A stretch of 63,748 bases of DNA, counting the filler, from Sphaeroforma arctica JP610 (Eukaryota): NCBI RefSeq assembly GCF_001186125.1. It is 4 parts of 2 records of this genome, joined end to end, with 100 filler letters (N's around TTAATTAATTAA, not from the genome) between each part and the next. Parts side by side here need not be neighbours in the genome. Positions count along the whole stretch, not along the records: positions 1 to 24,602 come from NW_014040539.1; 3 more parts are not named here. One strand, given 5' to 3'. Positions 613 to 62,142 of the stretch are shown in pieces. The first letter of the stretch is position 1. The number at the start of each line of letters is the position of its first letter. The notes under the pieces are model-generated. The model made no database searches and was not told the origin of the DNA. It was given only the letters and a program-made list of their open reading frames with translations. Both the position numbers and the translations under genes were made by a program.

Positions 613-624
613 GTATGTTATTCC

Positions 625-1843
625 GGCGCCAAGGAATATTAATAATCCCCGCAGACGTGTGAACGATATCGAGTTTAATCGCTTCGACCGAACGGCTTTA
701 CACCAACCCGCAGAAGATTTCCACTCTGACGAGGTGACCGACCTTAATAAATCGGTCGACGACTATACCAATAAAATGGAAGTCGCCCATGCTGCGCATC
801 ATGCTGATGACGTAGCATACTATGCGAATATTATTGCGATTAAACAAATGCGCATAAACTAATTACTTCAGGCCCAACGTGGACAAGACCACAGGGACAA
901 CCAGAAGTACAAGGGACAGATCAGTCGACTTAAGTCGAACTGGGATGCCAACAGCAAACAGGTCGAGTTTATAAACAACCATGACCTCGACACGCTAACT
1001 CGTACGCTTAATACGTTTACGGTCATGCTGGAGACGAATGATATCGCTCCTCAACAATTGATCTCTGCCTTAACGCAGACATTTGACCCTACAGGGACCA
1101 GTTATCTGATCCTGCAGCGACACCAGCATGAGCTAGACACTTGTCGTGACTTGCCAGCTGTGTGTTGGTTGGTCACATCCTTGTTAAGTAAGGATATGCG
1201 TAGCCCTGAGCTAAGTTCAATTTTAAATGAACCAGCCGAGGACACGCCCATTCAGAGTTATATTCTGAAGTTAGACGCTGACCTGAAACGTCCCAATATA
1301 ACAAAGGACAAGGCACAGCGATGGTACGAATTCCTGGTTTCGCACGTGTTCTGTAAGAACATAGAATAACACGCGACTGGGGCTCGAGACAAGGGACATG
1401 AAACAAAGTTTTATCTATCCCGACTTACATGGGAACAGTTTTATGATACTGTATCCCTTATTTTTCCCGCACATCGAGTAACAGCGAAAGGAAAAGCGGC
1501 TGTTAAGAAGCCGCGGGAGCTCACCGATCACGGGTACGTATCCAGGCAGACCTCAAACGAGAGACTCCAACATACATGTACTCGCGACTCCACTTTAACC
1601 ACGCGACCCAATAAACGGGCACGCGCAGGAGCGAAGGACATGGAACCTCCATTTAAGGAGATTAAGAAATGTGCCGACGCCCAGTGTGGGTATGACATGT
1701 ACCAGTTAACCCCTAACTGGTATTGGAATGGTAGACAAGCATCCACCTGTACACACTTTCTTACTAAGTGTGACAAGTGTGAGAAGACCAATGGTTATCA
1801 CACTAAGTCTTGTGACCGAAAGCCCAACATTAAGTTGGAGTGA
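625..1843 (+). pseudogene. gag: gag remnant (3' part) with C-terminal Cys/His zinc-finger motifs
   Basis: ORFs 659-862, 1025-1369 and 1640-1843 are colinear with the minus-strand gag at 7001-9128; ends in CDKCEKTNGYHTKSC. Confidence 0.8.
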
Positions 1844-4800
1844 CGGTACTACCAGGTACAATCATTACACGGACATTACAACGACTCTTTAGATGAGCGT
1901 GTAATAATCCCTGTATATTGCAATGGAAATAAAGTCCTTGCGTTGATTGATCACGGTTCAGAAATTTCATGTATGTCCGATCGCTTTGCATCAGGTACAA
2001 TCATTACACGGACATTACAACGACTCTTTAGATGAGCGTGTAATAATCCCTGTATATTGCAATGGAAATAAAGTCCTTGCGTTGATTGATCACGGTTCAG
2101 AAATTTCATGTATGTCCGATCGCTTTGCATTAATGAAAGATATCGAAAGGAGAACACAAACAACTCATCTCATTTTAACTGATGATAAAATCTCCCTGGC
2201 CGATGATAGGAGTATCACTACTCAAGCTGTGATAGTAAAGATGTCACAGAAGTACGACATTATAGTCGGAATGAGTGATTTGCTCACTATAGGTATAATT
2301 GTAACTGGTCTACCAACTAACATAGATCCATTAAAGGATCAATCAGACGATAACTGTCTGAATCCATATAAGCCCCCGTCAGACATAGTCAAGGCAGTAA
2401 TACATGACTTTGCGGACAAAACCATGGATCTGATTCTTGTTAATAAGAAAATAAAGAACACAGATTGGGCAAAATTCCGCTTTAACGACGGATATGTCAG
2501 CCTTGACTTGACCAAGGTGGACTTTACACAGTTGAAGTGCTCCTCAAGGAACTATGTATCCTGGAGACACGAGGCTGTGGTAAAAGAACAAGTTGAGAAA
2601 TGGTTAGCAGATGGAGTGATAGAAATTAACTATCAACAGACGCCAGTTGACTTGGCATTGCTAGCTGTAGACCAACATAACTCTGACGGATCGTTTAAGA
2701 AAGTCAGAGTATGTTTAAATATGAGTCCGATAAATAAGTTATTGCCGACTCATAGCTTTCACCTTTCTCGTATTAGCGAGCTACTGCGAAGGATGGAAGG
2801 TGCTACAGTGTTTACAACTATAGACATTACACAAGGATATCATCAAATGTAGATATATGAACCCCACCGTAAATACTTTAGCTTTACGTGGAAAGGTAAA
2901 AAATACAGGTTCAGAGGTGCACCTTTCGGGTTACACTCTTTACCAGCATTCTTCCAACAAGTAATGGAAGAAATGTTTGCAGACATGCCTAACGTGCAAG
3001 TCTACATAGATGACATAGTCATCTTTTCTAAGACTACAGGCGAACACGCCGCATTAGTCAGACGAGTCCTTAAGAGACTCAATGAGCAAAGCTTCAAGAT
3101 TAACTAGAAGAAATGCCACTTCGCAATGAGCGAAATACAGCTCTTAGGCTACCATATATTTGGGGGAGGTATTAAGATCGACCCCGGTAAGGTAGAACAC
3201 CTGTGAGATTGGCGAACACCAACTACAGGAAGAGATGTTAACAGCATGTGTGGGTTTGTAAACTTCTTTTCAAATGGAGTACCACACTTAGCTGACTACC
3301 TTAAACCTTTTGGACACTTAAGATGTCATAAAGGCAAACTAGGAGACTTGTGGACTAAAGAGTGTGATGACGCATTTAAAGCGCTCAAACACGCAGTCCA
3401 ACAAGCCCCAGTTGTACAAGGGCCAGTCGATGGCGTGCCGTTTGAAATAGCAACGGACGCATCAGACTTAGCCTTAGGAGGAGTATTATATCAGGTTATA
3501 GATAACAAACCTAAATATATACAATTCTTTAGTCGAGCAATGAATGCTTCACAGTTGAATTATCCAACTGTTAAACAAGAGCTATTAGGCATAGTGGCAG
3601 CTCTAACACACTTCCGAGATTACTTATACGGAACAGCATTTGCGCTGATGTGTGATCCGAAATCTCTTCAATATATGAAAGAGATGAAACCCGACTCGCA
3701 ATTACTGAGTCGCTGGCATGATACAATATCAAAGTTTCATTTTGATATAGAACATCTGCCAGGAATACATAACCATTGACAGGATATGTTATCATGCTTC
3801 ATACCGGACTTTAATGAATGCGTACGTGAGTTACTAGCCACTGACTGGAAATGTAACCCCAGGTGGTTTGAACTGGCTCAAAAGGTATTTGGGCCACATA
3901 CCATAAATATGTTTGCTGCACTTCATAATGCACAACTATCGAATTACAGGACTTTAAATCTTCCTTTGGGAGACGCCTTTCAAATAGACCTCTCCAAACA
4001 TAATGCGTGGGCTAATCCACCATGGCAGTTAATTGCACAGCTATTAAATTATGTTTATATACATAAAGCTACCATCACGTTGTGTTGCCCATTACGGAGT
4101 AAAGATCCATGGCTCAATAAATTAATAAGCATGATACAATGCGAGCCAATATATTTAGATAGGGAAGTAGATACTTTCCTATATCAGGGTACCCGAACCG
4201 TCCAGAAGACGCCCTGGTGACATACTATAATATGTCGTATAGGTACCATTGGAACAACCAAATGGACCCCTTCTGAGACCTTCCTTAACAAGGTCAAAGA
4301 ATCAGAGATTCCACTCTCTACCCAATTGAACGTTAAGCAGTTCAAAGGCAACACAGCACTCGAAGTCTGTGCACAAGAAATACAATCTACTAATGACACT
4401 ACAGTTAAGAAGCGTCAGTCTCGAGCTAGGACTCTGTTTAATAACATAAAGTCCAAGCCCGAGGTCTTTCAAACCCTATTTTTAAAGGGATTAATGAAAG
4501 ACGATCCTGAAGCGTATACACATACAATGCGACTATTTAATAGGTCAGGTGTATCTAACGCACACGAGCGCACTCATGACACTCATGCGAAAGCAGGACA
4601 GGAGTCTGGAAACACTACAGACTTAGAGACCACGCAAGTGGATTCTCAACACCCTACCTTTATTCTGGAGGAACAGAAAGATGAAAACTTTCTTGCTTGG
4701 CTGACGCAAACCCATAAGCTGAAGCACCAGAACGTAGTAGACGCACTTAAAGATGCTAAGCGAAATAGGATCGCGCACCCTAAGCTGGCAGCTTTAGTTG

Positions 4801-6100
4801 ACAGAGTATATCAGTCATGTACAGACTGTGATCTCAATCAGATCAAGCGCTATGGGTTCGCACCGCTTAAGTGTGTGACTGAAGATGTTCCATGGCGCAG
4901 GGTCATCATTGATCTGGTTGACCTGCCCACGTCCGAGTACACAGGCGACCGTTACGTATGCCACTTCTTTGATGTGGCGCCACGGTTTAACTTGCTCTAT
5001 CCATTAAAGAATAAGAATACACAGACCGTGGCAGAAATATGTTGCCAAATCTTTGCTGACCACGGGTGGCCAGGTATTATGTGCACTGAGAACGGTAGTG
5101 AGTTCTGCGATGTTGTATGGAATCGCTAGTACTCGTATTAGGCATATGCTATAGGAGAGGTGTGCCATATAAGCCGCAAACGCAAGGCGCGAATGAAACG
5201 CGCCATAGAAGACTTAAGTTCTTCTTGCGTACTGCATTAACGGATGATGCAGATGATTGGCCGTACCACCTTAAGTGGGTACAACATAGATGAACGAGTG
5301 TGCTGATCCGATTACAGGAACTACACCCGCTCACTATTTTCGTGGCAAATATAGTGAGTTACAAATACCCTTTAACAAGGACGAACCTGATCACCATGAG
5401 TTACCATAGTTAGAGAAGGTACAACGTATTTATAACGTTGTATATCCTTGATTGCGAGAAATACGCAATATAGCCGTATTAAAAAGGCAAAAGCGTTGGA
5501 ACACTACCAAGAAGATAGCAGAGTATCAGGTCGGTGACAGAGTTAACATCCGTCAGCGTAATTCCAATGCTATTGTATTAACATCTAAATGGATAGGACC
5601 ATACATAATCTCTGTAGCCGACACTAAAAGTAAAACCTATGAGGTTAATAACCCCGACGGTCCTAGTGCTTTAAATATAGGCACTAGTCGGATACAGACT
5701 ACCGAGATTATACTTGTAAGAAGATATGACTCTAATGTCCCTCTTGATCGTTCTGAATTTAAAGACAGATAAGGGAGGTTATATTTACTATCGTACACGC
5801 TTTATAGACGGTACAATCGCTGAGTTGACTTCAGATGCTTTCGACAATCAAGACTATTTAAAAGCCTTTAATCGAAAATGGCGTAAACGCCTGCATAAGT
5901 CGCAAGCTGGAAAAGATAGCATGTTTCCATCGTCGGAAGGCACGGAAGTTAATACTTATACGCATACAGCATTTATCCCGAGCTTTAATGCTCACCCTTC
6001 ATATGTGCTTAAGACACTGAAGCGTACGAAACGTCCAGTCGACCACCACGGACCTACTGGACCCAAGCCCAAAACTCACATGGTAACCGAGAACGCTTAA
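1844..6100 (+). pseudogene. pol: pol polyprotein remnant (protease, RT, RNase H, N6-adenine MTase, integrase)
   Basis: ORFs starting at 1947, 3246, 3786 and 4326 share one frame and are separated by in-frame stops only; frameshifts appear after ~5130. Confidence 0.93.
3843..4250 (+). other. DNA N6-adenine methyltransferase domain (phage Dam-like / DIRS MT-like) embedded in pol
   Basis: DWKCNPRWF...FGPHTINMFAALHNAQL...DAFQIDLS...AWANPPWQLI...ATITLCCP...W; catalytic NPPW at 4014-4025. Confidence 0.85.
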
Positions 6101-6239
6101 CTTCTCCGCCTGAGAAACATTAACTATATTTTATGCTACTTAATGTTTTCGACCCGGTTTTCCATTCTCGCTTTTTGACCCATAATCAGCTTGAGTGAGC
6201 AACCTGCTTCTCCTGCGTCTCAAAGCTGGATGGAGGCTG

Positions 6240-7000
6240 TGTAATAGCCGGGCCTCCACATTAGACTCTATGTTATAAACGTACTCTTAAGCAGTACGTA
6301 AATTAGAAACGTACTCTTAATAGTACAAGGAACTTAAGTTTCCTAAACGGGTTTTAATGGTCCTATTAATTAATACCTTTTCCATTTTACATATCAGATA
6401 TTTGGACGAGGTCATTAAAAGGCCCCAGTAAAATACCATACATAAGAGTTGTTCTAGTTCTATTAATAGTACTATATTTACTTTCCAACTTTATTTATAT
6501 CTGAATACTTCGGTAGCGAGATGGCTCAACCGAATATGGGTTTCTAGGGACTATTAACGTTACCTAGTTGATCCTCCGATCAGCCAACCAGATGTGCCAG
6601 TCTGATGAAGTCTAAGTCGGTAATTCTTGATAAGTGGCAAGTTATTGGTTAGACAATAACTAAGGACATCAAGAGTATTTTCTTCTTCTTTTTTCTTCTA
6701 AAGATAGGATTTTATGAGTCACTCAGATTCGTCCCAATGAAACATACCATAGTTTCTAATAGAGCGACAACAAAACACTAAATAAAATCCCTTCGGCGGA
6801 AACAGTACTGAGAGGATTAATATGGGCAATGTCTCAGCTTCACAATCCCTCAGAGTATTGCTGTTTTCACGATGCATACCCAACTTTACTAAAAGTCTCA
6901 TTTGGTTTATTTACTTTGATATGTTCACGATACTTAGAATTTACCTACGCGTTTATTTACTCTAAGGCGTTAATATCGCCTTAATAGACCGAATCTTACA
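6240..7000 (+). repeat. Family A 3' LTR (761 bp)
   Basis: TGTAATAGCC...GAATCTTACA, preceded by a PPT; four further copies in the window. Confidence 0.95.
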
Positions 7001-9128
7001 AACGTAATGTCGGGCTTTTTGTCGCAAGAATTGGCGTGATAGCCATTGGTCTTCTCACACTTGTCATACTTAGTAAGAAAGTGTGTACAGGTGGGTACAT
7101 GTCTGCCATTCTAATAACCGTTAGTGGCCAATTGGTACATGTCATACCCACACTGTGCGTCGGCATATTTCCTAATCTAGTTCAATGGAGGTTCCTTGTC
7201 CTTCGCATCCGTGCGTGCCCGTTTATTGGGTCGCCTTGATTGAGTGGTGTCGCGAGTGAGCACGTGTCTGGTTAGGTCTGACGTGAGAGATGTCCTTAAT
7301 CAGGGAGCTCGCGCGGTTTCTTATTTACTGCTTTTCCCTTCGAGGTTACTCGGTGTGCGGGGAAATGAGTGGATACAGTATCATAAAACTGCTCCCACGT
7401 AAGTTGGGATAGATAAAAACTTTGTTTAATGTCCCTTGTCTCGAGCCTCAGTTGCGTAGTTACGTCGCAACTCGGTGTACAGACTTTCACGGTCGTTGTT
7501 CATATGTTGTTACAGAAAACATGCATAAAAAGGAACTTGTACCATCGCTTTGTTTTATCTAGACGTTTAAGGTCAGCATCAAGTTTCAGAATGTAACTCT
7601 GAACAGGAGTATTCTCAACTGGTTCAGTTAAGATTGAACTCAGTCCTGGACTGCGCATGTCCTTGCTTAATAAAGACGTAACCAACCAACACACAACTGG
7701 CCAGTCACGACAAGTGTCTAGCTTATACGGGTGTCGCTGCAGGGTCAAATAATTGCATTAAAGCAAAAATCCATTGCTGGTCAGAGATATCATTCGTCTC
7801 CAGCATGACCGTAAATGCAGTAAGCGTACGGGTTAGCGTGTCAAGGTCATGGTTGTTTATAAACTCGACCTGCTTGCTATTGGCATCCCAGTTCGACTTA
7901 AGTCACGTTGGGCCTGAAGTAGCTGATCGATGCACCTTTGCTTAATCGCGATCTTATTAGCAAAATATGATACATCATCAGCATGGTGCGCATCATGGGC
8001 GGTTTCCACTTTAATAATGTAATCGTCAACCGATTTATTAAGTTCGGTCACCTCGTCAGAGTCGAAATCCTCTGCGGGCTGGTGTAATGCTGTGTGATCG
8101 AAATGATTAAATTCGACTTCGTTAACACGTTTACGGGGGTGTTTATTACCCCTCGTAAAATCCATGGTCGAGGCCTTTCGGTGCTCTGTTCCTCGGATAG
8201 TGGTTGATTTTATAATCTTGGGTGATTTATGCGTCCGGATGACGTACTCAGTCTTAACTGGTTTCCGACGATTGTCATCCCAGTTGGGTAAAGGTGGCGG
8301 AGTATTTTTACCTGCCTCTGGGTCTATAATACCCTCAAGGACGGGCGACTCATGGCCGGGCGTTAGAACAGGCGAATAATTAGCATAGAGCTCTGGTGGT
8401 GGTACCTCGTAAGGCATAGATACGCTGAGCACATCTGGTACATCTGCCACAGTTGTAGCGCTCAAGCCTTTACGCTCTTCGGGCGTAATTGCCTGTCGAC
8501 GTTCTGTCCACTTCTGTAGGGCTTCGGTAAATCCCGGAGAAACATGCTCGCGTAAGTGCTGTGTATGGTTTCCTAATCTATACAATCGATCTACATGTTC
8601 AACAGCCATGTCCTTCATAAGGGTGGCTAACTGATTCTTAAGATCAGTGTTTTCAGTAATTAACTTACTTATGTGCGTTGGTTCAGTGGTCTCGGACGTA
8701 GATTCGGGGTTGCCACTTGAGCCTGCCTCCTCATCTGGTTCCGTTATAGGTACCTTCTGAGATTCATCTTTGTCCCCTATAATTGGGGGCTTTTCTTTCT
8801 GAGTTTCGTCAGAAGAATTGGATGGGATGTCTTGAGACGTGTCCCTTGTCTCACATTTTGGCTTCGCAAATGCCAGCTTTAAAGTTGAGGCAATAGTTGG
8901 CCCTCGGCCTCTATATGTAGGAGTAGTTTCCTTAATAGGAGTGGCTACATCCTTATCTGAGGTATTGTCTTGACTATTATTGTCGGAGACAAGTGCTTCG
9001 GCTACGGTGCGGTTAAACGCATCGGCAGCGGCAGCGGTTGCTTCTGCGGCAGCGGTAGCAACTTCTCTTTCCATCCTTTTACGTTCGGCCTTGCATTTCT
9101 TTGCAGGCGTATTGTCTTTCTTTGTCAT
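7001..9128 (-). pseudogene. gag: Long gag (about 700 codons, frameshifted)
   Basis: ORFs 7857-9128, 7500-7748 and 7296-7490 match the + strand gag (e.g. EFNxFDxTALHQPAEDF, CWLVTSLLSKDMRSP). Confidence 0.8.
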
Positions 9129-9254
9129 AATCTTAACTTATGACTTCAGTATTATTCTCCTAAGGAATGACTTTGCTTAAGAAAACATTTCGTGATAGTT
9201 AACCTTTACGTTTAAGTAGTCTAAGTAATTAGTACCTTTGCTATCTTTAAAATG

Positions 9255-10028
9255 TGTAAGATTCGGTCTATCAAGGCAATATTAATGCCTTAGAGTAAGT
9301 AAACGTGTAGGTAAAGTCTAAGTATCGTAAAATTTAAAGTAAATAAACGAAATGAGTCTTTTAGTAGAGTTAGGTATGCCTCGTGAAAAGCGCAATACTC
9401 TGAGGGATTGTGAAGCTGAGACATTGCCTATATATAATCCTCTCAGGACTGTTTTCGCCGAAGGGATTTTATTTAGTGTTCCGTTGTCGCTCTATTAGAA
9501 ACTATGGTATGTTTCGTTGGGGCGAATCCGAGAGACTCATAAAATCCTAGCTTTAGAAAAAAAAGAAAAGATAAAAAAATAAAGGAAAAATACTCCTGAT
9601 GTCCATGGTTATTGCATTTACCAATAACTTGTCACTTATCAAGAATTACCGACTTAGCCTTCGTCAGACTGGCACATCTGGTTGGCAGAACGGAGGATAA
9701 ACTAAGCAACGCTAATAGTCCTCAGAAACCTATGTTCGGTTGAGCCATCTCGCTACCGAAGTTTTCAGATATAAATAAAGTTGAAAAGTATATATAGTTC
9801 TATTAATAGAACTAGACCAACTCTTATGTTTGGTATTTTACTGGGGCCTTTTAATGGCCTTGTCCAAATATCTGATATGTAAAATGGAAAAGGTACTAAT
9901 TAATAAAACCATTACAACCATTTAAGAAACTTATGTTCCTCGTACTATTAAGAGTACTTTTATAGTTTACGTACTGCTTAAGAGTACGTTTATAACATAT
10001 AGTCTAATGTGCAGGCCCGGCTATTACA
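9255..10028 (-). repeat. Family A 5' LTR (774 bp)
   Basis: Reverse-complement homolog of 6240-7000 with TG...CA termini. Confidence 0.95.
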
Positions 10029-11816: not shown

Positions 11817-13176
11817 ACTGGGTTGAGAAGGGCCTGGGCTATCATCACGCAGAGTCACTTGTTGTCCAAGTATAAGATATAGGTTGTATTTGTACTGTTG
11901 GGTATAGAGTGTCTACTTTACATGTGCTCTGTAGACCCTCGGCAAACCGAGCTGCTGAATGCTAACTGTGACGGTCATCTTGGTCGGACAGAAGTGAAGG
12001 TTCCCACGGAGCTGCTATGATATATTCGATGTGAGCATGCTTGTATTAGATGCATATTTCAGACTAATGCTATCTTAACGCATACGTGAGATCATGTATG
12101 TTCCTGTGAACTATCTGTATATCGCTCATATACTCGCACCTTTGTGTGTGTATTGGACGGTTGTTCATGAGGAAGCAGGGCTAGCTGTGTCGGGTTCACT
12201 GGGTGCTACTTCTCTACCACTACTGTGCAATAAGCCACATCGACTGCAAGCTGCGTAGAACAAGCCAGTATGTCCAACTAGTGAAACACACCGCCAAATG
12301 CCCTCACTCTGCTGAATTGTACTCTGTCCTCTATTCATTAATACTGAACTGTATAATAACATCGCTCTGTCTGTTATTGAATCCGTACCATCTGATCCGT
12401 ACGGCTGTATGCAATCATAGGTGGGCTGGAGTGGAGGGCGTGATGCTGTGTACATGTGCAAAGGCTTCAAGCAACTGCGAAGCCATCTGTGCGGACAGTT
12501 CCCCAAGGAGAAGGACGCTATATACAAGTACTTTGACGAAATCTTCCAGGCGTCTAAGGTATATAAGTGTAAACGTATTGATATAGATAGGAATGATCGC
12601 ATGGGTGTACCGAATGATTGATCATGTTTGTCTAAGTGTGCACGAGACTTTCCTTCCTATCTCTTGTAATGACGGATCGTACAATGCCGAGCTGCGAAGA
12701 GAAACAGAAACGGGGGTTTACACAAGCCTTGTAGAAGCGATTCCCTCTTTAATTGTCTAGCATGCGCTTGTGCTGCGCACTCTTCTTATTGGACACTTCC
12801 GTTTGTCTCTTATACGTGCGCATCATACTAATCCTCTATGTACATGTATATCTGATGACATGATCATTTGCCTATACTTTGGTCATCATACGCTCCCTCT
12901 ACGTACGTGTATATCTGATGATTTGACTACACTTCGACCATCAGGGTGCTAAGGCCATGATTATGATGAAGATCATGCCAAACTTTATCTATTCCAAGTG
13001 CGCTGAGTACTTCGATAAGCTCTACGGAGAATACGGCACACGAAGTGTCATAGATGTCATGCAGGAGTGCGGACTCTCTAATGAAACGATTGGCATGGTA
13101 TGTATGTGCGTATAGTGTACTTAGCCAAATATACAAACAAACAACACACACACACACACACTTATATATATATATG

Positions 13177-13214
<38 letters not shown>

Positions 13215-16200
13215 TGATATATTTATATATCCATCTATGTATCTATATGTGAATGTAATATATATTTGTACATTTGTATATTTGTATAATTATATGTAGA
13301 TACATAGATACATATGCATATACATAGACACACATGCATACATAGGTTTGGATGATTTGTGTGCGTGAATTATCACGGATATCGCTATAGAGCTCTCCGA
13401 TAAAACAGTCACATTGAGAAGTGTCTATGTGGGTGTGTCGCATATAGTCTTCTTAAGCCAACTCATATGACTGCGTATCTAGTTGGGTGAAAGCATCCGC
13501 ACAATGCGAGCGTGTTTATGTGTCTCGTGAAGTCTTTTTGTCCAGCCAAGAAGTCAGTCTACATCACCGCGATGCATTCATGCGGGGACAAACACATACA
13601 TGGCGCCCAAGGAAGCGCCGTGTATTACATCAGGCGTGAGATATTCCATTCACGTGTGTGTTTGATAAAGTAGGTAACATTCGTTTCATGGAGTGTATGT
13701 GCCAACATTCAGCGATGATGAGTTTGGCTCTTAAGGGGATTGTCTGCTGTATTCTCCGAGAAACTCACACCCACCCGGCTCGCCAATCAAATCACTTGTA
13801 TAGTGCTCGTGTTGTGCTGCTTTCATATAAAGCCCCAATGTAACATCTTTCCGCCCACACAAATGTCCGCATAGTGCTCGTGTTTTGGTGCTTTCATATA
13901 AAGCCTGAGTATATCAACTTTTAAGCCTTGAGTATATGAATCATGATTTGGACCAAAACATATCCGAAGTAGCTCAGATGGGAGAGCATTCGACTGAAGA
14001 TCGAAAGGCACCAAGATCGATACTTGGCTTCGGCAGATTTTTTTTTGAAAGATTTTTTTTTCCATGGTTGCTTAATAGCTCTAAGCAAATGAATGACTGT
14101 GTGCAGCCATTTGACCTCTTATACAGCAAACATGACCCCCCAGAGATTAGAATTGTCGTTAATGAGTAGTCAATATTTGTCAACTAAAATATATGCCAGG
14201 TAGAAGTGTGAGCCTTCAGACAGCAGACATGAGCCATATAACAGCAGACCATGTAGTATCCGTCTTAGACTTGCCATCAACGAGTAGTCGATATTTCACA
14301 ACCAAAATATATTCCAGGTAGAAGTGTGTTGATCGGTATATATACGCCTATAAAATGTGACCAGGCCCGCTATATGACTATCTATCGTCAAGGATGGCTG
14401 TATATAGTAAGTATCATCATTTGCTTCAGTGTGTATTTTACTTGGATTTATCCTCAACGTATACACACCAGCACCATTGCACAAAGGGTTCTACCTACTC
14501 TTACTATATCAAACAACCTTCATACCATCACGCGAACATAAAGACGTGCCTAAGAGTCTCTCTACTTGCCCGTTTCAGCTCACCTACAACTGGGGCGACT
14601 TCGGAACGCTGCCGTCCAAAGCACCGTTTCTTCTGCACGCTTTGCATATCATGCATTGGATGAAGGGTGGATGGTTCCCAGTGCATGGACCAGGTATTAG
14701 TGTTCATACGAGCGATTTATAGCTGTCACGCGTGGATATACATATTCATGCATACGTAGCTATACCTGAGATTCCCAGTGCATGGACCAGGTACTGGTGC
14801 TCATACGAGTGATTTATAGCTGTCACGCGTGTGTATACATATGCATGCATATGTAGCCATACTTGAGATTCCCAGTGCGTGGACCAGGTATTGGTGTTCA
14901 TACGAGTGATTTATAGCTGTCATGCGTGGATATACTTATGTGTGCATATGTAGCTATACTTGAGGTTCGCTGCTTCTAGCCCTCCCCCACCCTTCTATAC
15001 TCCCGCTCCCCACCTTACTCCCTTAAGATTGGGTGAGTCATTTGGGGGCAGGTGAAAAGCCTGTGGTATACTTTTCAAACCCGAAAGCGTTGAGTATGTG
15101 AGCTTCCTTCTGCTATTGAACTAATACGCTTTTGAAGTTTCCGTTCAAATTCTTGCCAGTTGTATACAATGAAGTTGCGTTTCCTTCTCATGTTGAGCAT
15201 GTCTTTTATTGTAGGAAAGGAAAGCATAAAATTATGACAAACTGTTCTATTGTCAATATGAAACTCTGTGCGTAGCCCACTCAAGTAGAGTATAAACAGA
15301 TAGGTTGTAGATGATCTAGGCGTGGTGTGTGATATTAGCTCGTTGATTGTCCAAAGACCTTTAATGCGTAGTTAAGTTAAGTACTGATACTGTCCTGTGC
15401 ATAGGCCACTGAAGTAGAGTATAAACAGATAGGGTGTAGATGATCTAGGCGTGGTGTATATTCATAGCTCGTGGATGGTCAAAAGACCTTTAATGCGTAG
15501 TGAGGTAAAGTACTGACTGCGTGCTGTGGGGATGTGGTTCGGCTATCTAGAGCATAGATACCATTAAGCTGTGATGTAGAAGTAGGTGTTGTCTTTACAA
15601 ACGGCTCGGGTGAGGTTTCAAATGCGGTATTCGCTGAAGGGTTTAGGGTTTTTAACCCTTGCATATACAGGCCATGTTTTAGGGGTTTTTAGGGTTTAGG
15701 GTTCTGCACACACCTTAATACAGGCACACACGTAATGGTGTAGAACGTAGGACCCCAACCGCAGGTGATAAATCGGTGCTCCATACATCACTGATTGTGC
15801 ACTGTGTCATATGCCGGTTCGTATGTTGCCTTGTGTACATTCTGTACACCACTGATTATGCACTGTGTCATATGCCGGTTCGTATGTTGCCTTGTGCACA
15901 TCCTGCACACACCACTGATCATGCACTACGCCCTCGCCCGACTACACAGAACAAATCGCGATTACCATCCTGCCCACCATTGAGAAGCCTGGCGGCAAAT
16001 GCTTTGTCAACGCCCGAGTGTCTGAGATTGTGCTGGATAAGAGTGGGGGGGTGGAGGGCGTGCTCATGAACAAGGGTCTCTTCATACCCACCACTAGGGT
16101 TGTCTCCGGAGTGGGGGCGTACAACACGTACACCAAGCTGCTCAGTGACAAGGCCACACTACCACCCCAGGTGAGTAGATTGGGTAAAGGCGGTAGTATC

Positions 16201-18469
16201 CGTGGGTGTTGGGTGTCGGGTGTGTATGTACATTTGTTGTAGCTTGTTGTTGTGTGTATGTGCACTTGTTGTAACTTGTTGTTGGGAATAGAGTTTGTGG
16301 TGGAGTTGCCTGGCATCTCAGTAGCCAAGACTGTACCTGGAATGTGGTCATGCAACAGAATACCTGCGTCATGCCCCCGCAGTAAACGGTCAAGACTTCC
16401 ACCCCAGATGAGATGTTCTTGTACATTCGTGGCATGGTTGTGTGCTGTGCGTGTACTGTTGTATGTATTGAACGTATATGTAAACCCTAATGTTTGTGCC
16501 CTCTGTGTGTACTGTTGTATGTGTTGTAGGTATGCGTACATATGAGTTGTGCGAAGTAGTATTTATCTTTTATTTTTTGCATTTAGAGGTCGCCATGCAT
16601 ACAATCAAGGTCGTACACAAGACGGGGGCAAAAGGAGTCCAACCCACACAGCTCAGGTACAGGGCGTTAAAATGTCTGAAACTTACGAGATAATGGTTAT
16701 GGACAGGCGAGTAGAACAAATTTGGTGTCTGTGTTGTACGGTTACACGAGCAATTGCTTTGATTCAACATTTCTTTTCCTTCAGTGGAATAGGCGCATAC
16801 AGCTATCGCGGGAGGGCCTGAGATACATCGTATAGGTGCCGTGGAGAACTACCTACACAATACAATATGATGCACCCCAACTGCATCACTCCGACCATTG
16901 CTGTCCTTCCCAAAACACGGGGCGTTTAACCAACCAAACTCAACTCAAAACACCACACAGATCCGAGATACCCGCAACGCCCTGACCTCGCAAGAGCTGC
17001 CTCTGGGCGGTACCATGATGTCACTCTTCATCGGGTTGGAAGGGACTGTGGAGAGTCTGGAGGTGCCCAAGCACAACAAGTGGGTATTCCCGACTTGGGA
17101 TCACGACGCAAACCAGAAACGCCAGGATGACGAGGGCCTGGATGCACCTTTTCCGGTCGTGTAAGTGTGTGTTGGTGTTGCGAGGTTAAAGGGAGGCGCT
17201 TGCTGATGGGTGTGTCCGTACCCCTGCGGTGTTGATGATTCTGGTGTGATATTGGATGGCCATGATCAGATAGGCAATGCATACGCTATATACTCACTTT
17301 GTATGGAAGTGTCAAATCATACTGCGGTTAGGCTATATCGGTTCCCGTGCATTAGGAATGAGGCGATGTGCGGGGCAGATCATAATCCTTGTACTCTTGA
17401 TCGATAGGTGAACTACAGTCGTTCATTAGAATACGACTACTCGTCAACACAAGGATGCGCCTATTGCGCTCAATACACAGGCCACAGATCCTCACATGTG
17501 TGTCCTTAACTGTGCATTACCATGTATCGGTACTGTCTGTTCTCGCCTTGAATACTCTCCGTTTCATGTCTCTATCTGTGAACTACTAATGGTAATACAT
17601 GTACATACCCTGAATAATTGCAGGTATCTTTCCTTCTCGTGTGCGAAGGATCCCAAGTGGGCCGAAAAGTACCCCGACACCTGCGTCGCGGAAGTGCTGG
17701 CACCCATCCCATATAGGTATGATGAAATGTTGTCACATGGCTGATCCAAAGCGCTGTATACATAAGATTGTATTTGCATTCTATTGATTCGATGTGTAGA
17801 TTTTGAGGACATTTAGCTGGCTCACGTACATGCGTGCCTGTTATTTTAATAAATCGGTAGGAAGGTTGACATGGTAGAAATAAGCCGCAGTCACTCAAAC
17901 CGTACATCCCGTTGTATTCACCTTTTAAAAGCATGTTCGAAGAGTTCGAGAAGTCCGTACACAAGAAGCGAAATGACAGCTACGACGCGCTCAAAGAGGT
18001 GTTCCAGGAGAAGATGATGGATGTTGTGTACAAACGGTTGCCTCAGTTTAAGGGCAAGGTTAAGTATGTGAACCTCGGATCCCCCCTCACCAATAACCAC
18101 TACTACAACACGCACAAAGGGGAGGTGTACGCCTTGGACCACTCGCTGGTACGCTTCTCCGTGCACAACCAGAAGAACAGACTGCGGCCGACTACCGAGA
18201 TCAGGGGCTTGTATCTGACGGGACAGGATGTATTCATGTGCGGCATTATGACGGCTATGTATTCCGGCGTTATGACTGTAGCTAGCATGTCCTGGATGGC
18301 TTTGTTCAAGAACTTAGATATTCTGCTGCGCAGGGTTCCGTCCGTGTACGGTGAGACGCGAGTGAAATCGGACGGGAACGAATATGGTGTGCTGAAGGAT
18401 AGTGCCGTGTTCAAGATACTGATGGTGGTAATCTTCGCTATGCTGTTTCGGGCGCTTCTCGTAGGGTAG
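11817..18469 (+). CDS. RETSAT: All-trans-retinol 13,14-reductase (retinol saturase)-like FAD oxidoreductase, spliced; 5' end uncertain or damaged
   Basis: Phase-consistent GT-AG exons 12421-12558, 12945-13097, 14579-14693, 15950-16170, 16961-17160, 17624-17716 and 17932-18469 give FPKEKDAI, YNWGDFG..P, HAL...GGWFP, SFSCAKDPKW, GSPLTNNHY...GEVYALDH and GLYLTGQD. Putative upstream exons at 11817-~11870 and 11935-12030. Confidence 0.85.
13963..14035 (+). tRNA. tRNA-Phe(GAA), intronic, slightly atypical
   Basis: Cloverleaf TCCGAAG/CTTCGGC, D stem GCTC/GAGC, anticodon arm TTCGA-CTGAAGA-TCGAA, T stem CCAAG/CTTGG; followed by an oligo-T Pol III terminator. Confidence 0.85.
14675..14965 (+). repeat. 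3 x 97-bp tandem repeat including an exon end and 5' splice site
   Basis: Units start TTCCCAGTGC at 14675, 14772 and 14869. Confidence 0.9.
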
Positions 18470-18714
18470 GGAGATAAAATATCAATGTGAGCAATACATT
18501 CTCATATTCTATCTGTATTTATCTAATTTGGCTTGCACTGATTGCTAGTCTTTAATTGACGTATCAGATTTCAAATAAACTGCCACGATTCACAAGGATT
18601 ATGTTTACGCACACAGAATACTCGGATGTTTCCTGAATATCTTCAATACGACTATTGGCAAGCTACAATATACGTGCATGATAGATATATATTAAAATAC
18701 TTGTCTGTTTCTCG

Positions 18715-24349: not shown

Positions 24350-24602
24350 CTTCTTCGGTATAGGAAGAATATCAGCCACGTGGGACACGATAGAGGGGTC
24401 CACAACTGCTGCTGGGACTTCGTAAGTATCACTCTTCTCATCATGGTAGGAAATAACAAAAGGTCCTATCGTCTTAGAAGAGAGTTCGGTAACGTTGGCG
24501 TTTCGATTTATAATGTTAACGTAATCGCCGACTTTGAACTGAACAATGTTCTTAGTGTTATTCCATCGGTCATACGCTTTAGGTAGGACGTGATTCTTGT
24601 GC
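24350..24602 (-). pseudogene. Integrase C-terminal fragment of a family-A relative
   Basis: Minus strand reads RWNNTKNIVQFKVGDYVNIINRNANVTELSSKTIGPFVISYHDEKSDTYEV, aligning to RWNTTKKIAEYQVGDRVNI...GPYII...TYEV at 5452-5772. Confidence 0.8.
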
Positions 24603-26605: not shown

Positions 26606-29600
26606 TCAACCTTCTGCCCCTGCGGAAGGCTCTGTCATACTATCGAATGTAAACGGGAATACCAGGCTTCGTGGGTACATCAGATATTTTGCCATTAAAG
26701 TACGTGTAGCAACTACGATGAAATTCTGTATCTTCTCGACGTTTCGCAGCACGGATTGGTTTTCGTCGCCGAGATTAGCGTCAAAGCTAACATCTACCAG
26801 GGGACTAGGGGTGGAGCAGTTCGTTAAAATGAGTTGAGATACATCTGAATCTTATCATCCAAACAGAGTGGCCTACGAGACTCACTGAAAGATTTGTACA
26901 TGGACAAATATAATTATCAGCTGTACAGGTTCAACGTAAGCACATTCGTATGTAGTAGCGGTTACGCCAAAGATTTTCAGCCATATTTCGCTCGAAATTT
27001 TAAAACGCGGAAATGGCTATAGATACTTCGACATACCTGCTGTGCTTAATGGAATGCAGCAGCGAGATGCGGATGTCCTTGTTTTCACGCACATATGCGA
27101 TAATCTCAGCTGCAGTATACAAAAATTGCACATATGTTCAAGGATTAGAGATGTGCAGTAATCATTGTTCATAAAGCAACTGACACGGCAAGTCAGATTC
27201 ACCAACACATTGAACTTGAATTAGCTCCCGACGAAATGATCGCCCTGCAAATTCAGTGCATGAACAACGGGCCACACAAGCACCGTCGATGTGTAGTGCA
27301 CGGGTGGTTAGTTCGAATGGCAGAGACACAAAAACATTCAGTGCAAGAACAAAGGGCCACACAAGTACCGTCAATGTGTAGTGCGCGGGTGGTTAGTTCG
27401 AATGGCAGAGACACGAAGGCTGGAGACGGAGTGTTCACCTGGACATCAGCCGACACTCGCAGCACAGCACTGCCCTGGTAGGCTACACGCACACGTACCT
27501 GCAAATAGTGTGAAAGCAATTCCAATGTTCAAGGCGTATCGATTTTGATAAGCTCTACATGTACGTGGCTCTGGTAGCAGTGTGACGGTAGTATACATGG
27601 CTCGAGGACTTTGGTTTTCTGGAAGGCTGCACACACATGTGATAGAAATCGGAAGCGGTATAAATGCCTAATGGGTGTCGAGACTCTCAATTTCAACATG
27701 CACACGTATATATATATATTGGAAGAGTACTTAGTATACATGAGAAAGGTACTGATACTCTGATTTGCTGTACTTACATGTCTATGCAAAGTGTAAGGGG
27801 TATATAGCCACGACTGCTGGGTTCTCTACGTGCCAAACACCACGTTTACTGGCGGTAATGCACCAATCATTTTACCAATACATGTAGCGATGTTCCCGTG
27901 AAGTGCTCGTAGTCTGACACACAGAGTTTCATTATTATCTGCCTATACATCACTACCATGTAGACACACTATCTATTCTGACAGGCAGACATGCAACTCC
28001 AATCTAAGTTGTCAGTTAGTAGCTTCACCTACTCACGGGACACGCCCTTCAGATGAGTGTCCACACATGACTTGTCAGTATATACCAGGCACTTTCATAA
28101 AAATCGCATACAGTTGCTCGATGTCTATGAGGCTATTATCTTGGCCATGAAAATGTCTAATCAACTTTTTCGCCGCCATGCCCATATACAACAAGCTACG
28201 TGTATTAAATAAGACAAAGACAAACTATGTGCACTCACAGATATTCACTCGCACACCAGCTTATAAACTCACCTGTATATAATCCACCTTGATTTCAAGG
28301 CACACACAAATAAATGTTCAATCAATTATTGTGCTGACAATCCGAATGACCCTTTTGGATACACTATTTATTTTTAAATCTGTAGTCGGGATTTTAACCG
28401 GCACATAGCTTGGGTCGCTTGAAATGATAATTTATATCGTCACTCAACCAATTTGTACAACAGCACTTGATCTGAATATATACACATAAATCAATTCACA
28501 TTTAAGCCAACAACCCCGCCTGCACACAGTCCAGATCTCTATCAACGGTAATAGCTTGTATATCCATTCAATTGACTATGCACACTAATTTATATATACA
28601 AGTATAAACAAGCATAACAATTACTTCAAGTTCAAATTCTCATCTGCACACATTCCGTGTTGCTTGCACCAGTAGAACTGTACCTATTCACCACAATTTT
28701 ACACAATTACAAATTTAGACAAGTATACACGAACATATCGACTCGATTTGAAGCCAACCTCGCCACCCCCACACAATTTTTGTCGCTTGCAACAGTAGCA
28801 CATATCTATTCACTATATATACACAAACATATCTATTCACCAAATATACACAAATNNNNNNNNNNNNNNNNNNNNATACAAAAACATATCTATTCACCAT
28901 ATATACACAAACATACCTATTCACTTTATATACACAAACATATCTATTCATCATATATACACAAACATATCTATTCACCATATATACACAAACATATCTA
29001 TTCACCATATATACACAAACATATCTAATCACCATATATACAAAATTATATCTATTCACCATATATACACAAACATATATATTCAGAGGCATGCATCAAG
29101 AGATCAACTCGAATTCAGGCCAACATCCCCACCTGCACACAGTCCGGGCCGCTTGCAACGGTAGTGAGGCGCGCAGCGTCTTCGCGATAGTATTGTCTCT
29201 CGTCGAAGTCTTCATTCTCCTGTGAGCAAATATTTCAAGATATTCCGATTAAAAGATCTGTGCACATGATCTGTAACCAACTACCTATTCGACAAATTAG
29301 CTTTAAAGTCAGTCCATCACTGGTCGGTATAGTTTGTAAGTTCCACTATTGATTCGCTTAGATTGTACATTGAACAGCTCCGGCATAGACTAGTGCAACT
29401 GAGATTACCGCAGTTCAGCTATGACAAATGTATAGAATACGTATCGCATTCTTTGTTTGAACCGCAACAAATGTTATGGTGCACATAGGCAAGGCAGTTT
29501 ACCAAACGAACCCGCAAGTGAAGTACACAGATCCCGTATTGTATATGCTCGTGCGAGATATCATAAATTCTCAACATATGTCAATTCAATTAGCCATTTC

Positions 29601-35800: not shown

Positions 35801-36890
35801 TCATGCCTTTACCTGCTGAACTGTAGTTTCGCTTGGATGCTAAGGCCAACAGGAACATAAAAGTGTGGTCCGTTAGTGTATTCAGCAATGCCGACGGATG
35901 ACCTCTACCTCTGCAATACTTGCGGTTGTCGGAGAGATTTGGGGTGTGATGTGGTCAGCTGGGGACGATCTGGTAGCGAGGGGCTGGTGTCCTAGAGCTT
36001 TCGATATCGGCGTCAGTTGTGATTATTTTCGTGTCGGACAGCTGGGGTAGCTAGGTGCTCCAGACCCAGGATCAGTTCGGGTTCTGCGAGGCCTGGAGTT
36101 TGGTGGCTTCCAAGGTTCCATCGGTGACGTACATGTCCTCTATTTTCTCTACTACATAGCGAGGAATGCCAAGACATGTAAGCGGTTTCACGGTTTGGGC
36201 ATATCGGCGTCAGTTGGGATTAATTCCGTGTTGGACAGCTGGGTGGCTAGGTTTTCCAGACCCACGACCAGGCTGGGTTCCACGAGGGCTTGGCGTTTGG
36301 TGGCTTGCAAGGCTCAATCGGTGAGGTACGAGTCGTCTACTTCTCTACCACATAGCGACGGATGCCAAAGACGTGTAAGCGGTTTCACGGGTTTGGCAGG
36401 AGTCGTGCCCTACCACCAGGAGATAATTATCAACAAGGAGATCAGCTCCTTCCTGTCTTTGGGCCTAGTGCCGTGAAGAAACCCTCCAGACACTGCCATG
36501 ATGTCAGTGGTTGGCGATGGAACCTGTGTACATGCTCTCTGTCTGTAGTTTAACCACTATCGTTAAATCGCCGAGGTAGGTCAGTAGGGCGTCAACCATT
36601 TGGAAAGTGACAGTCATAAAATGTTGCATACTTGTATTAAATTATTTTAAATACAGATAAAAACCAATGTGTTTTCTTATTTGATCTTGATATTTTAGGC
36701 TGACCGGAGGCCGTATTTTACAGCCAGCATGATGACAAGGTATTATTCACATAATCCCAGTGGTAGACGGTGGAACCCGTGTACATGCTCCCTGTCTGTA
36801 TTTTAACCACTGTCGTTAACTCGTCAAAGTAGGTCAGTAGGGCGTCAATCATCTGGAAAGTTATAGTCATAAAATGTTACCAAATCCGAA
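32900..36890 (-). mobile_element. Highly decayed gypsy-like pol remnant (RT, RNase H, integrase traces)
   Basis: Degenerate RT motif LLTYLGDLTIV / LLTYFDELTTV (36520-36880, duplicated), RNase H LYTDH...INYRNIPGPLN (35557-35796), and integrase-like fragments at 34000-34700. Confidence 0.6.
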
Positions 36891-36904
36891 CACGCGAAGG
36901 ATAA

Positions 36905-38156
36905 ATATATCTGTCACGTGTTTGATGTCGTGTCAAGATATAATGTATTGTATCCGCTGAAAGATAAATCGACACAAACTGTGGCTGAGTGCATATATAT
37001 GTGCTTCGCAGATTTCGGCTGGCCAGCTATTGTAAGGTTCCGACAACGGTAGTGAGTTTACAGGAGATGTCATGACGACACTGTTACTCGTTGCGGGATC
37101 ATGCCATAAGATGGGTGTACCTTACAAGCCTCAGACACAAGGTGTGAACGAGGTACGACATAGAAAGATGAAGGAGTTCATGCGAACAGCACTACTTGAT
37201 GATGCTGACATATGGCCGTACTCAATCAATTGGGTACAGACACAGATGAACGAATCCCCTGATTCAGTCACTGGTACAACAGCCACTCACTATTCGGAGC
37301 CGTTATAGTGAATTACAGATCCCCTTCAGCAAGGAGTCTCAAGATGATCATGTGTTACCATGGTTAGAGAAGATGCGTCGGACCAGAGATGTGGTCTATC
37401 CTTGCTTAAGGGAGATGAAGGACATCGCTCTCAAGAAGAGACAAAAGCGATGGAATGATACCAAGAAAATAGTCGAGTTTGAGGTAAGCGATATAGTCAA
37501 CATTATGGCTCGCAACTCCGATACAACTGTGCTTACGGCTAAATATATTAAACCATTTATGATCTCTGTGGCCAATAAGAAGAGTGGAACGTTTGAAATT
37601 AACAACGTTGACGGCTCTAGTGCCTTAAATATCGGGTCACATCAAATCCCTACGACAGAGATCATCCTTCGTCGCACACGTGAAGCTACTACATCTCTTA
37701 TGTCTTACGAGTTTAAGAAGATTCTAGAGAAGTACAAACATGAGGATATGACATATGAAAGCCCAACGTAATATAATAACCGAGTAACTTATAACGTCCA
37801 AGTATACTTTGTCTAAGAGAAAATAACATAAGCATTGAGGCCGTTATATGATCGAAACCCTGTAAACTTCGATGGAAACTTTANNNNNNNNNNNNNNNNN
37901 NNNNNNNNNNNNNNNNNNNNNNNNNNNTTAATTAATTAANNNNNNNNNNNNNNNNNNNNNNNNNNNNNNNNNNNNNNNNNNNNCTAACTGACTAAATTGT
38001 ATTTTAGTTTAATATAGTTTGAAACCTAGTAATTTCCATCGAAGTTTACAACCCGTTTCTTTTCTTTTCGCTTGTACAATTCATGTGAGCTTTTTGAGTG
38101 TATGTGCTAATACTACATATAAGCCAACATTGTAATTTTCAAGCTGAGGGGGGGGA
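36905..38156 (+). mobile_element. Integrase and 3' end of a sister lineage of family A, with PPT
   Basis: CHVFDV..RYNVLYPLKDKSTQTVAE..FADFGWP..SDNGSEF..PYKPQTQG..RWNDTKKIVEF; purine tract GAGGGGGGGGA at 38146-38156. Confidence 0.85.
37861..38050. mobile_element. Insertion with 18-bp terminal inverted repeats and a 4-bp TSD; interior lies in an assembly gap
   Basis: ACCC|TGTAAACTTCGATGGAAA...TTTCCATCGAAGTTTACA|ACCC. Confidence 0.6.
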
Positions 38157-46863: not shown

Positions 46864-49800
46864 TCATTTCCGCGCGCTTCGGTTGATTTTGCCGTAGACT
46901 GTTGGGAAAGCGTCCTCGCAGCGATACTATTCCGGTTGGTATGCAGATAGATTATAGCATGTTCAGTGCACACACTAGACATTGGGAGAAAAACAAACAG
47001 ATGTATATCATCCTTGGAAATCGATGACAAGTTCGACGCTTAAGATTACAACCACAAGGGATAGTAAGGATTGTCTAAACACGGTCTGTGGGTCACAGAC
47101 TGTGTCGCTGGTCGGGTGCATGTAACGTACAATTGCGTGAGCTGGTCCGCCGGGCCATAAATAGACATTGAGATCCAAAGCAGCAAATGTCAACACACAT
47201 ATCACATATCAGTAAAACTTCGGAAGAAAAAAAAAGAGGAACACCTTACACGCACTAGTACCTACCTGCTTCCGCAGCTTTTTATATGTGGTGTGGTCAA
47301 ACATCTGCTCAAACTCTTGCTCAGTCATGTAACAATCGGCATAGAGTGCTTGGAAACCTTGAAGACGGCGCACATGTGCTTCCACACGTTTCATCGACTC
47401 GGCGGCTACGAAGCTGAAGGTGGCACGATATACAATGAAATAAATAGTGTCAGTGTCATAATATACATTTACAGACGTGTACGTGTCCACATCATATATA
47501 TATATATATATAAATATATAAAAATAAATAATATACAGACGTGTGCACATCATATACAATTATATAGACATGTGTACATCATATACATATATATATAGAC
47601 GTATGCACATCATATACATATATAAATATATAGACGTGTGCGTGTGTACAACGGACATGCTTTGCACGAACATCACAGTAACCCGAATATGGATGTCTGC
47701 ATCAGAATCAGCGGCAACACAAACAGAGTCACAGGGCTATAGTCAGGATAGCCAAACGAGTGCAAATTGGGTTGACAGGACCGGCTATCATACACATACA
47801 ATGCGGATAGCAATGGCCAAACTACCAAGTCATCTGTAGTACTAAACGCTAGCTACTCACTATACCATTGCCACACCTGGCTCGAATGTCTAACACAGTC
47901 TACGAAACACATGGTCATACAACAAAGCATATCAGCCATATCCCATAAAAGCCGACACATACCCTTTATTAGCGGGATTTCCATACGCGCCAATGTCGAC
48001 AAACATCTCCTCGGGCTTGCCATCAACGATCGCAGGCTTTAAGAACCCGCCGTACTTGGCGTGGGAAGCGCTTGGTAGCTGCATCGGGCACAGCCAGAGC
48101 GGATATAGATCGAACTCGTCATGGAATATATTCACGCACTCGGCAGTGGAGCTGATGGGCACCAGCATGTCCTGATTGTGTAGGCGAAAGGTCAGGGTAT
48201 GTAATACTTCAGATATGCGTCATCGCACTCGTCATGGAATATATTCACGGACTCGGCAGTGGTGTCGATGGGCAAATATGACCTGATTGTGTACTATGGT
48301 TCAGTATCACATGCACATACTAATGAATGTATCAGCACATTCGTCAATGGGCATATACACGGACTCGGCAGTGGTGTCGATGGGCAAATATGATCTGATT
48401 GTGTACTATGGTTCAGTATCACATGCACATACAAATGAATGTATCAGCACATTCGTCAATGGGCATATACACGGACTTGGCAGTGGTATCGATGGGTAAA
48501 TATGATCTGATTGTGTACTATGGTTCAGTATCACATGCCCATACAAATGAATGTATCAGCACATTCGTCAAGGGGCAAATACACGGACTCGGCAGTGGTG
48601 CTGATGGGCACCAGCATGTCCTTTATTGTGCAGGTAAAAGGGGAGATTTGATCACAATCAATTGAGCATCACATCCGTCCACCAAGACATAGATACGCTC
48701 CATAGCACACTAAAAGACACTTTCCACTATTCATCCTCGAAGTAAGACTACGTCATGTGCAAAGTGCACAAGCATAGACCAGGATCATACCATACCTGCA
48801 CAACATGATGTAACTCGTAGAGCTTGCGGGTGGCTTCTATCTGGGTGAGTTTCAGAAGCGACACTTTGGGAGGCACCGCCCAACCGAACAGGTAGCGGAA
48901 TATGGGTTCATTGCCGAACGGAATGATATCCTGTATGGGGTAGTGAACCGGATGCTGGATTAGGACAGAGATAGACGTGATATTCTGCGGACGAGTACAA
49001 CAAGAATCTCTGTGGTACGCTGCCTGCACAGCTGAAAAAATGGCACACAATCGGACATGCACACACACACACACACATATATATATATCTATATATGTAA
49101 ATATACACCTATAGATATATGGGTAGATACACATGCAAATCACCGCAGACATACATAGACAGACGAGCCATATTGGTGCACGAGTGAGAAACCCTTCGTA
49201 TAAATCTGTGGGTGGGTGTTTGTGTATGCACATACGTACCCACACACAAGATGCACCCAACCCCGTGTCCATAAATACCCTGGTCAGCATCGTGCATGCA
49301 TAACTCTATACATATATATACTCGTCAATACAATACCGATAATTCCCAGAATATCGAGCGAGAATGGCGGTGGTAGTAGTCTCGTAGCGGGATGTACTCG
49401 TTTGAAGGTCCTATGGTGAGGAACTGCTCGACATGCTTGTAGAACCAAGGCTTATAATAGTTACCTGTGGTAAGGTGCAAGTATAACCAATGTTAAATTT
49501 TGACTCTGCGTCAATATATATATATATATATACATAAATGCATATATATATACATAAATACATATACATGAACATAAGTATATATCTGAACATGTATGTA
49601 TGTATATATAGATACATGTACATACAGGTGTGCAAATGTATGAAACTACAAACTTAAGCTTTTATACTGATCGTATCATGAGCCGCCACTCATAGCGAGT
49701 GGTTACTGCTTGGTGCTTTGCGCAACTACCCTATACATGACAAAACCGAGACACAAAAGTACACACCCCAATTTTAACAGAAACTCGAAACTCAAACCAT

Positions 49801-61195: not shown

Positions 61196-62142
61196 GTCTG
61201 TGTCGATGTACACCAATTGCTGTGCCGATAGGTTCTCAAGTGCAAACCCCGTGTAGCGAGGTGAGAGCTACAGTTGGGTTTCTAGGGTTTGCACAGGGTA
61301 TGTAGAGTGCGGGTGGGTGGTAGTGCGACCAGGGGCACAACAAGGCTGCATTTGGGTACCCCAAGACTGTCTGGCTGGCCCTGAATGTGCTATTTAGAGA
61401 TGTAGGCTTTATATTTCCATCCTCCGACTTCCCATAGATTCTTGAGTGCAGCATGCTTAAGTGGGTTGGTTGAGCGTAAAGACTTTAACTGTACCGGACC
61501 CCTAGTGGAGTGCTTATCCCTCCAGATGGTCCCACTGAAGAGAAGGAGGCTGACACCTGATTCCCCCGTTATCTCATAAGGAAATTGAACCCTTCAGAAA
61601 AAAATATTAGTCTGTGTACAAGATGGAGACCAACGTATGTAAAGTCGCACATACGTTTTGTGTATTGGCGCGCTAGTTTATAGTTCTCGATCGTCTTGAA
61701 CACCTCATTCTGTGTTTGCGTACACATATGCATCTTGGCGAATTGCTAGGCATGTTAGGTGTAAGGTGCGGAGTCGTCGGCATCCCAGCAACGTATAAGG
61801 TGATTTGAATATCGCATGCGCAACCTCTAGAGCCGCACGAGTCCTCATACATGGAACACTTCATACCCGCCACTGCACTCACAACATCCACGCCATGGGA
61901 TTCACACGCCTAGCGTAACCCTGAGGCCGTGAGAGATGTTCTCGTACTTCGGTAGGGTATACACGAGGTGCATTCTCTCCCTTGCTGTAATTGTATATAG
62001 CAGGCGCCGGAGATACACTGAGGTATCACATATAAAAGAACACCTTAGGTACAAGTAAATAAATAGCCAGGTTACATCCTAACTGTGGTCAGTTTGGTGG
62101 CCGTGTACTTCTGAGGTGAGATGTTTCGGAGTGCATTTATGC

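Follow-up and report, generated by a model that had tools for sequence, protein, structure and literature searches.

The closest described relatives of the element studied here are the DAM-LTR retrotransposons, an ichthyosporean lineage for which Sphaeroforma arctica is named as a host (Fernandez-Moreno et al., May 2026; bioRxiv 10.64898/2026.05.21.726589; hereafter the preprint). In S. arctica, DAM-LTRs have more 6mA-marked insertions and higher expression than other LTR elements, and a phylogeny infers transfer of the DAM from DIRS elements; the DAMs gave no global rise in 6mA in dam-minus Escherichia coli. The model proposed there consists of methylation of RNA–DNA intermediates followed by maintenance through AMT1, and the main text contains 0 occurrences of PCIF1/CAPAM. 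DIRS elements themselves have the pol order RT–RNase H–methyltransferase (MT), with an MT of unknown function, according to PMC3266345, which confirms the order given in the initial annotation of the present locus. In Iyer et al. (PMC4738411), the DIRS1 MTs are placed in the PCIF1 clade and their MT domains are judged likely inactive. A gypsy Pol with a captured DNA methyltransferase domain, KnitGypsy-Dnmt3, is described in PMC5890265.

The whole stretch of S. arctica DNA analysed here (63,748 nucleotides, referred to as the window) contains what is almost certainly a dead copy of a Ty3/gypsy-type DAM-LTR retrotransposon of this species (Table 1). The initial annotation had described it as a gypsy-type element with an in-frame Dam-like domain and had implied that it was new. 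The description is upheld, as the same arrangement is common to the stop-free relatives P0002 and P0003, and the novelty is not, as both the kind of element and the same model are already given in the preprint for the same species. A methylase-carrying gypsy element of S. arctica is already known from that work, with methylome and expression data, and our analysis serves as an independent confirmation, with evidence that the RNase H–MT–integrase design is under selection.

Table 1. Features of the studied copy and its sibling, in window coordinates
Feature	Coordinates	Strand	Remarks
Gag-like region, decayed, 5'-truncated	614–1843	+	Cys/His knuckle-like motif at 1769–1813
Aspartic protease active-site region	1853–2130	+	LIDHGSE at 1943 and 2082; aligns to P0003 protease
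Reverse transcriptase	2540–3205 (bounds approximate)	+	RVT_1, E 5.5e-14 on 2853–3104
RNase H	3350–3790 (bounds approximate)	+	RT_RNaseH_2, E 9.5e-31; RT_RNaseH, E 4.5e-28
Dam-like N6-adenine methyltransferase domain	3837–4244	+	PF05869, E 1.8e-4; independent profile, 135 bits
In-frame linker, poorly conserved, ~155 codons	4245–4709	+	25–30% identity among three copies
Integrase	4710–5810	+	HHCC finger 4713–4829; DDE core from 4905; C-terminal part
Polypurine-tract-like run	6228–6236	+	8/9 purines, 3 bases before LTR; weak feature alone
3' LTR, 761 bp, TG...CA	6240–7000	+	89% identity with 10028–9255
Sibling copy, same family	7001–10028	-	5' LTR 10028–9255 and gag 9137–7001

The pol of the studied copy, in the frame from ~1947, runs from protease through RT, RNase H, Dam-like domain and linker to integrase. 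The order protease–RT–RNase H–integrase in one pol frame is found in the window copy and in P0003, whose best PDB sequence match is the Ty3 Gag-Pol (E 6e-63) and whose integrase also matches the foamy-virus and HIV integrases in the same search. The gag-like region gave no informative Pfam match, and its 647–1836 part shares 74% identity with the gag-like stretch at 8138–7001 in the sibling. The protease motif is doubled by a perfect tandem duplication of 139 bp (100% identical), which shifts the pol frame and either arose very recently or is an artefact of the assembly. The RT retains an intact YIDD (~3003–3014) and is interrupted by stops at 2850, 3105, and 3204, and a further stop (3777–3779) is located at the RNase H end. 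The run of the frame into the HHCC finger and integrase, as originally described, is correct as regards the frame; it passes through the linker first and is broken at ~5110–5117, inside the core (frameshift near 5115), with further frameshifts near 5285 and 5770. The second acidic position of the DDE core is E, and rve is matched with E 0.0043 in the window ORF and with E 5.9e-9 in P0003.

Only the 3' LTR survives on the studied copy, which is without a 5' LTR and is cut within gag at ~614–647, beside an unrelated repeat. The sibling copy ends where this LTR ends, and the same LTR positioned 5' of gag is seen only there. Two copies are therefore needed to reconstruct the direct-LTR layout, and the TG...CA direct LTRs previously ascribed to the element hold for the family, through the sibling LTR, but not for the studied copy itself. 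Further LTR pieces are present near 23.1–24.3 kb and 39.8–40.4 kb of the window, and the LTR has an ordinary ApT content (observed/expected, 0.89). The inverted LTR pair (6240–7000 and 10028–9255) was considered as possible DIRS termini and rejected, as its members come from two neighbouring copies and the pol does not lie between them. Unrelated repeats are found to the left of the cut gag, with 17–83 resembling 38050–37984 (98%) and 520–613 resembling 36631–36723 (90%).

The motif string initially noticed in the pol frame is present as written (3753–4244). It begins with HLPGIHNH (3753–3776) and continues with ATDWKCNP (3837–3860), the predicted SAM-binding motif INMFAA (3903–3920), GDAF (3969–3980), WANPPW (4008–4025, with NPPW at 4014–4025), TITLCCP (4071–4091), and KTPW (4206–4217), followed by a stop (4218–4220) and the last strand, HTIICRIG (4221–4244). 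The domain is real, with a proper extent of ~3837–4244 instead of the 3786–4250 first proposed. Its assignment to PF05869 stands as a match (21.6 bits, E 1.8e-4, on the 146-residue stop-free piece of the window), but the score is under the family cut-off of 28.1 bits, as are those of P0002 (26.2 bits) and P0003 (22.9 bits); P0004 and P0005 score above it (53 bits, E 3e-14). An independent profile, built from five distant relatives only with the window, P0002, and P0003 left out, scored 135 bits on the domain and below 0 everywhere else in the six reading frames of the window, and in a shuffle control the best of 500 shuffles reached 4.8 bits versus 129.4 bits for the real segment.

No second MT domain was found in the window, and a PDB sequence search with the domain segment returned no match; weak matches of the domain profile to Chk1 kinase in the PDB (E 0.03) were taken as chance. 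The scans of viral and metagenome contigs gave no relatives of the domain, the one match (locus L001) being a chance one in a bacterial-looking gene, and a literature search for a caulimovirid methyltransferase produced nothing of relevance.

When longer proteins were searched with the segment, two of the 308 candidates matched, P0002 (1376 aa) and P0003 (1400 aa). Both are stop-free and contain RT, RNase H, the Dam-like domain, and rve in this order in one ORF, with the protease also in P0003. The domain is 73% identical between the window and P0002, 66% between the window and P0003, and 67% between P0002 and P0003, and the pairwise identities among the same three copies are 67, 65, and 61% for RT, 65, 69, and 73% for RNase H, and 29, 30, and 25% for the linker. 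The domain is therefore as conserved as RT and RNase H, unlike the linker, which at the sequence level points to selection on the Dam-like domain in the family.

Wider searching with the RT–RH–MT region of P0003 showed that, among the best 120 of 1259 matches, a precomputed integrase family is present in 117 and a precomputed PF05869 in 6. The order of RNase H, MT, and integrase region is shared by P0004 and P0005; rve was matched in P0002–P0004, and P0005 is without a Pfam rve match. In trees built on RT–RNase H with all 121 rows retained (no DIRS rows among them, so that gypsy-versus-DIRS placement is outside their scope), the window, P0002, and P0003 are grouped (support, 0.999 and 99%) and nested among integrase-bearing pols. 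The window and P0002–P0005 form one clade of five rows in FastTree (support, 0.885), with P0027 and P0020, both without a Dam match, as neighbours; in IQ-TREE, the smallest well-supported set around these five also includes two ungrouped rows. Separately, P0028, P0038, and P0109 (and weakly P0091) are gypsy pols with a Dam-like domain ahead of the protease. These pols are placed elsewhere in the RT tree and are therefore consistent with separate captures, as the preprint reports.

Two integrase fragments of the same group are also present in the window, at 24416–24601 (minus strand) and 36882–37798 (plus strand). Along 62 residues, the former has 90% identity with P0003, and the P0003 subfamily is therefore probably present in this genome. 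The linker between MT and integrase of P0004 (residues 939–987) has a weak Agenet (Tudor-like) match (E 0.004). The C-terminus of the integrase resembles a worn chromodomain by eye (window 5777–5900; P0002 1265–1310; P0005 1276–1321). For P0002 and P0003, however, such a degenerate domain was supported neither by Pfam, nor by a home-made Chromo profile built from 28 chromodomain-bearing relatives, nor by hhalign (probability, 0.3%), all of which are sequence tests only. A weak Chromo match was obtained in the sister element P0005 (17.7 bits with the home-made profile; Pfam E 0.015), and a weaker one in P0004.

The state of the studied copy was compared with that of other copies in four public sequencing runs. 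The contigs from all four, mapped to 3200–5200, cover the domain together with its flanks, and one run alone gave 21,841 pieces of graded identity on this interval, which indicates many diverged copies. In each of the four runs, another letter makes up at least 99% of the depth at positions 3778 and 3906, giving a sense codon instead of the stop at the former and aspartate instead of N at the latter. Because the other copies read sense and D, the stop at 3777 and the NMFA are decay private to the studied copy, in agreement with the initial view that the copy is decayed and that the N in DxFA is unusual. Translation of 19 variants out of the 40 listed of 226, a selected subset that does not amount to dN/dS, showed that, of 15 near-fixed differences from the other copies, 14 alter an amino acid or a stop and just 1 does not, with only silent changes (4/4, 2 of them inside the domain) among the intermediate-frequency differences. 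This pattern would fit neutral decay of the studied copy combined with purifying selection in the family. Since the three RT stops and the fourth at the RNase H end all precede the domain, the studied copy is incapable of the mechanism considered below, which concerns intact copies.

For structural comparison, the intact domain of P0002 was modeled with AlphaFold from an 8-row alignment (pLDDT, 86; pTM, 0.83). The named top structure matches of the model are SAM-dependent methyltransferases. When it is compared with predicted viral structures, the model is closest to a phage DNA N6-adenine methyltransferase (E 5.3e-9; TM, 0.65), and viral PCIF1-like proteins appear from rank 14 (E 3.6e-5). The best solved structure is PCIF1/CAPAM (Foldseek E 1.1e-4; VIA-align Z 10.2, root-mean-squared deviation 4.0, 143 aligned residues); ranks 2–10 in VIA-align are taken by adenine methyltransferases of rRNA or by a putative RNA methyltransferase, and lower scores were obtained for DIMT1, Erm, and KsgA (Z 7.7–8.6), E. 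coli Dam (7.6), and T4 Dam (7.5). The predicted class I, N6-adenine methyltransferase-type fold is well supported by this model.

Altogether, we lean slightly toward the explanation that the locus is a dead gypsy DAM-LTR copy of a family in which the domain of intact copies uses the reverse-transcription product of its own element as the substrate for adenine methylation. Whether the domain in intact copies is catalytic on DNA or a hybrid is, taken separately, an even call, and in the scheme that follows each step past the modeled fold is inferred. Following the preprint model, Pol with the Dam-like domain would be packaged alongside the element RNA; the domain would bind SAM via the DxFA..N motif and take adenine into the NPPW pocket, and may then mark the RNA–DNA hybrid or the new cDNA. 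After integration, host AMT1 could maintain 6mA at ApT sites, by which the new insertion would come to lie in permissive chromatin. The initial suggestion of a 6mA-using unicellular host fits S. arctica, as reported in the preprint. The enrichment of 6mA on DAM-LTRs is nevertheless a correlation, whose source could be host AMT1 acting on transcribed elements.

It is unlikely, though worth serious weight, that the domain is instead a non-catalytic nucleic-acid- or SAM-binding module, retained because it binds the RNA or cDNA of the element or brings in host factors such as AMT1, with any 6mA on the element being deposited by the host. P0003 has CPPW (residues ~694–699) in place of the catalytic NPPW, and its domain is still 66–67% identical to the others, so that conservation is undiminished; the negative E. 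coli assay of the preprint and the view of the DIRS1 MT domains as likely inactive in PMC4738411 point in the same direction. Against this, NPPW is kept in the window and P0002, P0004 also has NPPW and P0005 has NPPF (both at ~40% identity), and the motif-I aspartate is present in 7/7 non-window alignment rows. The natural NPPW (P0002) and CPPW (P0003) variants offer a ready comparison for the question of activity.

Rather improbable, in our judgment, is that the domain acts as a PCIF1-like RNA methyltransferase that forms N6-methyladenosine on the packaged or nascent RNA of the element, with an effect on RNA stability, translation, or packaging. PCIF1/CAPAM is the top solved match by both Foldseek and VIA-align, and the enzymes at ranks 2–10 act on RNA, some of them putatively; an RNA substrate would also account for the negative genomic-DNA assay, and the DIRS1 MTs fall in the PCIF1 clade in PMC4738411. 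However, the phage DNA N6-adenine methyltransferases match better than the viral PCIF1-like proteins (E 5e-9 versus 3.6e-5), and PCIF1 may therefore be merely the nearest solved relative; in any case, a shared fold leaves the substrate undecided. Most of the extra parts of PCIF1 are absent, and the 143 aligned residues are scattered over its positions 232–652. The PCIF1 cap site needs these extra parts. Also, no Pfam match to a WW domain was obtained in the element ORFs. In one form, to which we give correspondingly little weight, the domain would act inside the particle to mark the element RNA or, in the reverse-transcription hybrid, its RNA strand, and the 6mA of insertions would come from the host; if true, this PCIF1-like domain would be a retroelement-encoded RNA-modification enzyme. 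With an RNA cap methyltransferase as the nearest solved fold, RNA and hybrid substrates are worth considering.

Scarcely credible, and largely refuted, is the reading of the segment as a single DIRS fragment inserted into a gypsy copy, or of the whole as a DIRS pol that met a foreign integrase by chance: RT–RH–MT is indeed the DIRS pol order (PMC3266345) and the locus is full of nested, cut elements, but four independent stop-free ORFs (P0002–P0005) have the domain between RNase H and the integrase region, the window and these four form one RT–RH clade (FastTree, in trees without DIRS rows), a protease stands ahead of RT, a scan of 11 window ORFs, P0002, and P0003 gave no tyrosine recombinase family, and contigs of 4/4 runs span the domain and its flanks.

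Outside the element, an intron-rich host gene at ~12400–18470 (plus strand) resembles all-trans-retinol 13,14-reductase, its last exon being SARC_00588. Over 90% of its length, the exon at 17870–18466 shows 100% identity with SARC_00588 of S. arctica JP610, and its other four of five matches have 37–41% identity. A second retinol-reductase-like fragment is located on the minus strand near 47200–49300. Minisatellites occur at 60335–60870 (unit of ~21 bp), 62024–62800 (~30 bp), 28765–29110 (~27 bp), 48116–48620 (~112 bp), and 14675–14968 (~97 bp).

In comparison with known systems, KnitGypsy-Dnmt3 differs in that its enzyme is a cytosine C5 methyltransferase of an unrelated family in a charophyte host (PMC5890265). 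PCIF1/CAPAM (PDB entry IDs, 6IRX and 6IRW) is alike as the best solved structural match (Z 10.2), but is only 13–15% identical and has additional parts that are mostly missing from the domain. The phage enzymes of PF05869 and PHROG 111 share a sequence match, the NPP[W/F/Y] motif, and the best predicted-structure match, whereas the domain here is embedded in a retroelement polyprotein and the three closest copies score under the Pfam cut-off. DIRS1-like elements share the RT–RNase H–methyltransferase pol order and are characterised by inverted terminal repeats and internal complementary regions along with a tyrosine recombinase (PMC3266345); the studied element, by contrast, encodes an aspartic protease and a DDE integrase and carries a TG...CA LTR. 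In comparison with the ichthyosporean DAM-LTRs, the studied copy is dead, and the domain order of that lineage is unstated in the main text of the preprint; the two are alike in the S. arctica host, the Ty3/gypsy organisation, the DAM within Pol, the NPP triplet, a chromodomain undetected by sequence, and the 6mA self-activation that is proposed for them.
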